NCBI GenBank assembly: GCA_964016885.1
Contig: OZ024741.1
Location: 288,238,001 to 288,302,000 of the forward strand
DNA: 64,000 nucleotides
Direction of reading: 5' to 3'
Source: Eledone cirrhosa
Taxonomy: Eukaryota
In this document: one piece after another, positions 37,449 to 38,443 of the stretch
Layout: each line of letters starts with the position of its first letter
Position numbering within the stretch: the stretch's first letter is position 1
The notes under the pieces: model-generated
Database searches by the model: none
What the model saw: the letters and a program-made list of their open reading frames with translations, nothing else
What the model was told of the DNA's origin: nothing
Translations under genes and position numbers: made by a program

Positions 37449-38443
37449 TAAACGGAAAAAATGAAACGAAATTTTATTTCTCACTCTTAGTACGGCTGTT
37501 ACTTAAATATAAGTATGTATACGTACATACATATATGTATACAGACGTACAGTAGTATGTATATATATATACATACATGCACACATATATATATGTACGT
37601 ATGGATTCACCGAACATTTATTATAATGCTCAGTGTGTTTATCGTTTTCGGTGCGCCCGGCCAATTAACTCACTTAATTTGCAAATTAGGCTACTCAGCC
37701 ATTAATATGCATAAGGAAAGTATATACTTTCAGACATTCAATCATCTGGCAGGAAGGTATACGTTGCTGACGATAGCTAATAAGCTTGAAACTTGTACAG
37801 CGTTCCTTTGTCAGTGTTGAACAAATGAGCAACGATGGTGGCTAGACACTGTACGGCTTAATTCGGGATGTTTGTTTACAAACACACCGAGCATTATAAT
37901 AAATGTTCGGTGAATCCATACGTACATATATATATATGTGTGCATGTATGTATATATATATACATACTACTGTACGTCTGTATACATATATGTATGTACG
38001 TATACATACTTATATTTAAATAACAGCCGTACTAAGAGTGAGCAATGAAATTTCGTTTCATTTTTCCGTTTAGCGTTTTCGGTGCGCCCGGCCGATTAAC
38101 TCACTCGATATGCAAATTAGGCTGCTGAGCCGTTAATATGCATAAGGAAAGTATATACTTTCAGACGTTCAATCATCTGGCAGGAAGATATACGTTGCTA
38201 ACGATAGCTAATAAGTTTGAAACTAGTACAGCGTTCCTTTGTCAGTGTTGAACAAATGAGCAACGATGGTTGCTAGACACTGTACGGCTTAATTCGGGAT
38301 GTTTGTTTACAAACACACCGAGCATTATAATAAATGTTCGGTGAATCCATACGTACATATATATATATATGTGTCCATGTATGTATATATACATACCACT
38401 GTACGTCTGTATACATATATGTATGTACGTATACATACTTATA
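37449..38443 (+). mobile_element. Retrozyme-like element: inverted 5' segment + tandem 431-bp units with minimal hammerheads
   Basis: 37449-37640 is the reverse complement of 37880-38072. 37643-38012 repeats at 38074-38443. (TA)n flanks. Confidence 0.85.
37761..37803 (+). ncRNA. Minimal type I hammerhead ribozyme (second copy 38192-38234)
   Basis: acgttg-CTGACGA-t.agct aata agct.t-GAA-AC tt GT-A-cagcgt. The second copy has palindromic stem III ACTAGT but core CTAACGA. Confidence 0.85.

Follow-up and report, generated by a model that had tools for sequence, protein, structure and literature searches.

How does a non-coding repeat that bears hammerhead motifs come to lie in a genome as a partial tandem preceded by an inverted copy of part of itself? 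The question is raised by a locus in a 64,000-nt stretch of the Eledone cirrhosa genome, the whole of which is hereafter called the 64-kb window. The initial annotation explained this locus as the product of rolling-circle reverse transcription followed by fold-back. The analysis reported here leads to a different answer: the locus is one insertion of a dispersed, non-coding 431-nt family into a (TA)n tract, now decayed, and the family is very probably a non-autonomous Penelope-type retrozyme that belongs among the metazoan non-LTR retrozymes. The value of the analysis lies in the family-level counts and in the young intact copies rather than in the window locus, whose own copy is an ordinary decayed family member.

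Layout of the locus

The tandem has a period of 431 nt and comprises 1.9 copies (37637-38451) that are 93-94% alike; unit positions are numbered with u1 at window position 37637. The inverted segment, first described as a copy of about 190 bp of the unit's 3' part, lies at 37449-37640 and matches 37880-38072 at 96.4% over 194 nt, spanning unit positions u244 to u435. The tandem, the inverted segment and the unit's own TA/TATG-rich stretch (37918-38016) were all present as originally reported, and so was a nearby, unrelated 467-nt element, which ends at about 37398, 50-60 nt from the locus, and has no BLAST match to the unit. Despite the lack of a match, the insertion anatomy of this 467-nt neighbour is the same as that of the 431-nt family. 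The features of the locus, in window coordinates, are the following.

37389-37450, no strand: target tract on the left, mostly (TA)n but partly (TG)n, in which the 467-nt neighbour also ends
37451-37640, minus strand: inverted arm, 5'-truncated at u244, 96.4% identical to 37880-38072; its tailed 3' end (u435) faces outward into the (TA)n
37637-37640, no strand: head-to-head junction, an arm overlap of 4 nt, with the microhomology GTTT common to both arms
37637-38067, plus strand: unit 1 of the direct arm, 431 nt, subfamily A
37761-37803, plus strand: type I hammerhead 1, with a 6-bp stem I and a 4-bp stem II; intact core 37767-37773, GAAA 37788-37791, stem III altered at 37794, predicted cut after 37797
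37918-38016, plus strand: internal TA/TATG-rich near-palindromic tract, the end of which (u~380) is the tail-less 3' end site
38017-38071, plus strand: tail, about 55 nt long, that separates the two fixed 3' end sites and holds a predicted hairpin of -10.6 kcal/mol
38068-38441, plus strand: unit 2 of the direct arm, partial, terminating at the tail-less site
38192-38234, plus strand: type I hammerhead 2, with a palindromic stem III (38222-38227), the core change G5A at 38200 and C>T in stem II at 38216; cleavage predicted after 38228
38442-38659, no strand: right target tract, (TA)n

GC content is 0.33-0.38 in the 2-kb bins that cover the locus. The open reading frames of at least 120 aa that overlap it all run through the (TA)n tract, and the repeat is non-coding.

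Hammerhead motifs

Hammerhead 1 is the sole strict type I descriptor match in the 64-kb window, and the same descriptor matched none of 5000 random 431-mers and none of 10 random 64-kb sequences. An Rfam search of the window gave no hammerhead family among 125 matches at E<=1, these matches being low-complexity miRNA and snoRNA entries. Both minimal hammerheads of the initial annotation are real in position and the first is complete, but the second reads CTAACGA, with an A at core position G5, and fails the strict descriptor. G5A alone inactivates the hammerhead. The same change is one of the two made in an inactive hammerhead control (PMC6128941, as far as its text is accessible). The family majority, conversely, is an intact type I hammerhead with a palindromic ACUAGU stem III (ACTAGTA in four of the five subfamilies, ACTAGTT in the fifth). 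The core is intact in 97 of 130 dispersed copies and in 207 of 246 array units, as against one of two at the window locus, where the G5A of hammerhead 2 and the non-palindromic stem III of hammerhead 1 are private decay.

Stem III had been described as unusually short, with ACTTGT in one copy and ACTAGT in the other. Its shortness is confirmed for the monomer, in which computation gives 2 bp around a 2-nt loop, with 6 bp formed only as a dimer, but the two sequences do not have equal standing: ACTAGT is the family majority, while ACTTGT, which was considered as a subfamily marker and rejected, is sporadic and is carried in two units by none of the dispersed loci listed. Palindromic, dimer-dependent hammerheads are covered in PMC4209133, in its accessible part, and dimer dependence was rightly claimed for the family, whose stem III is complete only as a dimer; the window's dimer, however, carries G5A. 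The computed stem III duplex energy is -4.8 kcal/mol for ACUAGU and -0.2 kcal/mol for the window's own pair. Within a dimer, each core would act on the site of the other unit (core 1 on site 2, core 2 on site 1). Because of the G5A in core 2, the window locus is predicted to make at most one of the two cuts, via a mismatched stem III, and the genomic dimer would therefore be a poor assay substrate.

Across the five subfamilies the invariant core positions are unchanged (11 of 11, P=0.037), and stem I shows one double change, from U.G to G.U. Taken as a whole, the hammerhead shows no significant excess of conservation over the remaining unit sequence (7 of 43 versus 59 of 217 positions variable, p=0.18). 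The monomer folds with z=-6.84, a value likely driven by the TA/TATG hairpin.

In subfamily D (L176-L200) the cleavage triplet is GUU, not GUA, in 28 of 31 copies, and the remaining core is intact. Further CTGANGA...GAAA motifs occur in the window at 14743-14785 (-), 18588-18630, 21089-21112 (-), 26816-26859, 33384-33412 (-), 51837-51860 and 63702-63752 (-); since some of them recur at other genome loci, they probably belong to other repeat families.

A dispersed family and its arrays

A search of the genome (3.0 Gb) returned 2,634 candidate copies of the unit, 40 of which were scored. Three queries gave 90 loci, and removal of 5 duplicates and 7 array loci left 78 dispersed loci with 122 arms, a sample chosen by likeness to the three queries; subfamilies D and E, which are diverged, came from two further queries. 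Identity among the majority sequences of the five subfamilies is 78-98%, with 66 of 260 positions variable. Divergence of copies from their majority amounts to 3.1% outside CpG sites and 6.2% within them, and the copies of subfamily E are 99% alike. An A>G strand bias, sought as a mark of an RNA step, was not found (98 versus 76, p=0.22). A G>A excess in subfamily A sits at few sites (21 at u17) and was set aside as subfamily or alignment noise.

As the initial annotation implied, arms can be longer than one unit: 78 of the 122 exceed 440 nt, a proportion that the choice of queries biases upward. Arms reach 3 units in the tallied dispersed loci, and arrays run from 20 to about 250 units. A young subfamily-E insertion (L280:4550-9900 and L281:1-3000) pairs a tail-less arm of 10.4 units with a tailed arm of 5.1 units; a single marker is present in all 16 units, and no difference over 290 nt separates the 10 full units of the long arm. 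This insertion would serve well as natural material for tests of cleavage and circle formation. Among young long arms, unit spacing alternates between 471 and 477, and some variants alternate too, which hints at some DNA-level duplication of dimers. The array on C28 (109956746-110067686, L101-L112) covers about 111 kb and holds 246 near-full units of subfamily B, interrupted by about 3.9 kb of other DNA; it opens with one inverted unit, in which it resembles an expanded insertion. As a source of the sampled dispersed copies this array was rejected, most of its frequent private variants being found in 0 of 16-18 dispersed copies of the subfamily; two other frequent private variants occur each in 1 of 16-17 dispersed copies.

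Two fixed 3' ends, one per arm

If rolling-circle products had been inserted, the ends of the genomic copies were expected to be circularly permuted. The alignment of the 122 arms bears this out for the 5' ends, which are uniformly distributed over the unit (KS p=0.33), but not for the 3' ends, which in 106 of the 122 arms (78 loci) lie at one of two sites about 55 nt apart. Fixed 3' ends do not refute a circle, because the site would set the start of reverse transcription. Fifty-eight arms are tail-less (ending near u380), 48 are tailed (ending near u435) and 16 end elsewhere. A TA run follows 41 of the 48 tailed, 32 of the 58 tail-less and none of the 16 other ends, that is, 73 of the 106 canonical ends overall. 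The u~380 and u~435 sites each overlap a short TTAT/TATAT motif, and the exact 3' end base is blurred because TA is common to arm and flank. Insertion flanks are mostly (TA)n, where a target-site duplication cannot be read.

At the other end of the arms there is neither an LTR-type fixed 5' terminus nor a pile-up at the ribozyme cut site (5 ends within 6 nt versus 3.7 expected among the arms tallied). A cut site is crossed by 108 of the 122 arms, a figure inflated because the queries required cut-site regions. Uniform 5' ends without an excess at the cut site, together with arms that cross it, indicate that the template was not the cleaved linear monomer.

Two head-to-head arms are present at 44 of the 78 loci. 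Both ends are canonical in 31 of these 44, and in 27 of the 31 one tailed arm is paired with one tail-less arm, where 15.4 such pairs are expected (p=1.5e-5); the remainder are 3 loci with both arms tail-less and 1 with both tailed. This one-tail pairing was also recognised by eye in subfamily E (L155, L159, L163, L165, L168, L169, L171, L172) and in subfamily D (L178, L183, L187, L188, L196). At the 44 junctions, the arms overlap by 1-11 nt in 23 cases, meet bluntly in 1, are separated by 1-47 extra nt in 16 and overlap in the palindromic tract in 4.

Penelope-like elements of the genome

The unit has no RT or GIY-YIG ORF and is not an autonomous Penelope-like element. A partner was looked for among 10,596 GIY-YIG candidates in the genome, 150 of which were scored. 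Pfam searches of four tested frames detected the RT in all four and GIY-YIG in three. Examination covered 79 loci at 77 distinct places; these belong to 9 families, two of them with their own hammerheads downstream of the ORF, and no pLTR homologous to the 431-nt unit was found in these 79 loci and 9 families. Where RT/EN matches lie near family loci, they sit beside or around separate insertions. Unit-like DNA near the GIY-YIG ORFs of L091, L092 and L136 was considered as a pLTR and rejected as separate insertion, the unit having entered the element's TA tail in L092 and the ORF end in L136. The unit match of L263 lies about 3 kb from its GIY-YIG match, and a match to the 467-nt family in L082 comes after the element's TA tail. 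Weak matches of 60-71% in L241, L256, L274 and L276 were discarded as partners for their inconsistent placement relative to the ORF. The RT+GIY-YIG element of L092 has the same one-tail layout as the 431-nt family.

A young RT+GIY-YIG family of the L092 type (L092:3610-3660 (-), L081, L082, L086, L090, L247, L266, L272), which from a motif I take to be Neptune-type, has a hammerhead in which U3-A8 replaces C3-G8 and stem III is palindromic. In another RT+GIY-YIG family (L084, L085, L087, L096, L251 and others) a type I hammerhead with a palindromic AGTACT stem III lies about 380 nt after the ORF.

Template and mode of insertion

Both arms come from the same subfamily at 44 of 46 loci. Rare variants are shared at 1.88 per 1000 sites within the same arm, 1.15 between opposite arms and 0.15 between loci, hence 8-12 times more often within than between loci; any rare variant is shared by 9 of 61 opposite-arm pairs and 9 of 46 same-arm pairs (18 of 107 within-locus pairs overall). 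The window's two units share none and differ at 8 of 235 sites. The agreement between arms, the shared variants and the marker of the L280/L281 insertion fit one circular template. The same data also fit a common source locus, a succession of subfamilies in time, and later conversion or duplication.

According to the initial annotation, the inverted segment arose by fold-back, in which the end of one rolling-circle cDNA would be extended along its own strand. Any copy made in this way has to sit inside the arm that served as its template, and containment was scored in the 23 simple two-armed loci with clean junctions, with a 12-nt tolerance and any whole-unit shift allowed. One arm lies inside the other in 14 of the 23, the window locus included, which for that reason cannot, alone, tell fold-back from two primings; in the other 9 neither arm is contained. 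Fold-back is therefore contradicted as a general rule and, although it survives for a subset of loci, I regard it as improbable. It would find a precedent in the head-to-head arms of Penelope inverted repeats, for which self-priming was proposed (PMC3846280, accessible part), and it accords with the likeness of the arms in subfamily and rare variants and with the 4 of 44 junctions that fall within the near-palindromic TA/TATG tract. At most junctions, however, the two 5' ends come from unit positions separated by tens to hundreds of nt, and no palindrome is present; inverted arms have the two fixed end sites of direct arms, and in only 7 of 19 cases does the tailed arm exceed the tail-less one in length. 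Two separate primings on RNA fit better, since they explain all loci and fold-back only a subset.

The same double priming could also have used a linear, uncleaved read-through transcript of a tandem source, in which case the hammerhead would be incidental, no circle would form and long arms would result from later unequal crossing-over. Ribozyme mutants leave insertion in vitro unaffected and unprocessed, uncleaved RNA is the main substrate there (PMC11167929, accessible part); the absent 5' pile-up at the cut site suits uncleaved RNA equally, and the alternating spacing and variants of young arms, as well as the existence of arrays of 20 to about 250 units, are in keeping with this reading. 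What makes a linear template nonetheless rather unlikely is that the largest array, on C28, did not seed the sampled copies, that 5'-truncated copies of 1-3 units would shorten in each round unless a circle or an array restored their length, and that the hammerhead core has been kept across five subfamilies. A repeat of DNA-level type (a satellite, or MITE-like or Helitron-like) that spread through repair or recombination at (TA)n, its hammerhead-like motif being a relic, would account for the large arrays and would suit the A>G counts above, which carry no direct mark of an RNA step. It is nevertheless very improbable: target-primed reverse transcription is marked by fixed 3' ends together with 5' truncation at random, by head-to-head arms and by tails on one side, these marks are also found in RT+GIY-YIG elements of the Eledone cirrhosa genome, and the copies have no fixed 5' terminus.

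Comparison with known systems

Two primings on the two target strands that give head-to-head arms joined at microhomology are known from LINE-1 twin priming, in which the second primer anneals at a variable internal site. In the 431-nt family, by contrast, the two start positions are constant, and either arm may be longer than one unit.

Non-LTR retrozymes were defined, with their circRNAs, by Cervera and de la Pena (2020, PMC7229834), who proposed Penelope-like elements as drivers; Li, Clavereau and Pollet (2026, 10.64898/2026.07.22.740005) linked retrozymes to pLTRs in Xenopus and saw cleavage of 1 of 9 dimers. In the accessible parts of these sources, metazoan non-LTR retrozymes are built, as is the 431-nt family, from AT-rich tandem units that code for no protein and carry a single type I hammerhead, have a palindromic helix III so weak that a dimer is needed (as in axolotl HHR_Amex1), occur as monomers, dimers and long arrays, and co-occur with Penelope-like elements. 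The class is further characterised by the lack of an LTR, primer-binding site or polypurine tract, by linear and circular monomer RNAs, by self-cleavage that is better in the dimer and, where a target-site duplication is present, by a length of more than 4 bp. The 431-nt unit compares with 170-400 nt in the former and with 51-972 nt, a range that includes it, in the latter. Neither paper, in its accessible parts, mentions a two-armed layout or two fixed ends for retrozymes. The 431-nt family is described here from DNA, and no autonomous pLTR match was found for it among the loci examined.

The two-armed layout and the two fixed ends are familiar from Penelope-like insertions, which, in the part of PMC8557442 available, include partial tandems, an inverted 5'-truncated copy, a tail of 30-40 bp often at one end, and (TA)n targets. 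In PMC11167929, likewise in its available part, two internal RT starts define the tail, both strands are cut and extended, and the start site shows neither a strand difference nor homology to the cut DNA. With the EN+ elements (Penelope/Poseidon, Neptune, Naiad), as far as the accessible descriptions go, the 431-nt family shares 5' truncation, the partial tandem, the inverted 5'-truncated copy, the tail at one end, the (TA)n or AT-rich target, microhomology at the 5' junction and a hammerhead upstream of two start sites. It differs in having no ORF, in the length of its tail (about 55 nt versus 30-40 nt) and in start sites that overlap a TA motif able to pair with the target, whereas the start of the anole element is non-homologous. 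The non-autonomous Chlamys elements, such as MRC1 (PMC8557442, accessible part), are likewise non-coding Penelope-type passengers that occur in multicopy head-to-tail form, but they resemble their autonomous partner at the 3' end, while no partner match was found for the 431-nt family among the loci examined. Elements with an N-terminal EN lack canonical hammerheads according to the available part of the same source; the hammerhead of the 431-nt family is canonical.

A literature search, mostly outside subscription journals, returned no description of this family or of a counted one-tail rule; the supplements of 10.64898/2026.07.22.740005 may list similar families. In their accessible parts, the papers cited propose, without demonstrating it, that Penelope-like enzymes mobilise animal retrozymes via circular RNA, and leave open the origin of the tandem and inverted layout of Penelope. 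The family counts reported here (two fixed starts, one per arm, and arms that are often not fold-back products) bear on both matters.

Proposed pathway

The hypothesis that I consider slightly favoured as a whole is Penelope-like double priming on one circular template. Two of its parts can be graded separately: given the class of the family, a circular template is moderately probable, and writing by a Penelope-like RT/GIY-YIG enzyme that primes from both strands of a cut target is likely. Counting against the whole are the lack of a partner match in the 79 loci, the 14 of 23 loci that suit fold-back, the alternating spacing of young arms, the use of uncleaved RNA in vitro and the absence there of a strand difference in the start site or of homology to the cut DNA, the ordinary conservation of the hammerhead as a whole, the missing A>G bias, and a tail and unit that are longer than the usual 30-40 nt and 170-400 nt. 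In this pathway, tandem copies would be transcribed on the hammerhead strand, and adjacent hammerheads would pair via the palindromic ACUAGU and cut at u161; the motif is seen, and its activity is presumed. Monomers would then be circularised, probably by a host ligase, as suggested by the retrozymes of coral, mussel and axolotl. Cleavage of (TA)n by a putative Penelope-like endonuclease would provide DNA ends, each of which would prime at one internal RNA site, u~380 or u~435, leaving the fixed ends and the one-of-each pairing that are observed. Each run would pass the ribozyme site and halt at random, as the uniform 5' ends suggest, and the two cDNA ends would be joined through microhomology or short filler of the kind found at the junctions. 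Copies would decay, by about 3% each, and a few would swell into satellite arrays.

More tentatively, a dimeric Penelope-type enzyme might load one small hammerhead RNA circle and start two rolling runs on it, one per target strand and each at its own fixed site, so that every complete insertion would have one tailed and one tail-less arm. This coordinated version is possible rather than probable; if true, the one-tail rule, which two unrelated neighbouring families and an autonomous element of the genome also follow, would be a trace left in the genome by coordinated twin rolling-circle priming and would show directly how animal retrozymes are mobilised. For in vitro tests, the family offers a small ORF-free template with young intact copies, those of subfamily E.

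Neighbouring elements in the window

The 467-nt tandem family, represented in the window at 36743-37398 (-), has 2,752 candidates in the genome and a long-stem-II hammerhead-like motif. It too has two fixed 3' ends, 108 nt apart, and among 20 loci fetched, a tailed arm is combined with a tail-less one in each of the 6 two-armed loci whose ends are both canonical. On the right, the insertion at 38660-39032 belongs to a family of 751 candidates, about 98% alike and TA-flanked, with a period of about 630 elsewhere. It consists of head-to-head 170-nt arms, one with a 32-nt tail; no hammerhead was found within these arms, and among 20 loci fetched, the one-tail pairing occurs in all 3 with both ends canonical.

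A LINE-like reverse transcriptase C-terminal fragment at 36276-36743 (+), without a Pfam match and presumably RTE-like from a motif, ends at a (TA)n tract. Four elements are strung along TA tracts between 36.2 and 39.1 kb. Elsewhere in the window, at 11985-14059 (-), 41920-44396 (+), 44920-48795 (-) and 61455-62708 (-), are frames that, from their translations, I take to be broken Helitron-like helicases and retrotransposons of R2/CRE-like and L1/Tx1-like type.
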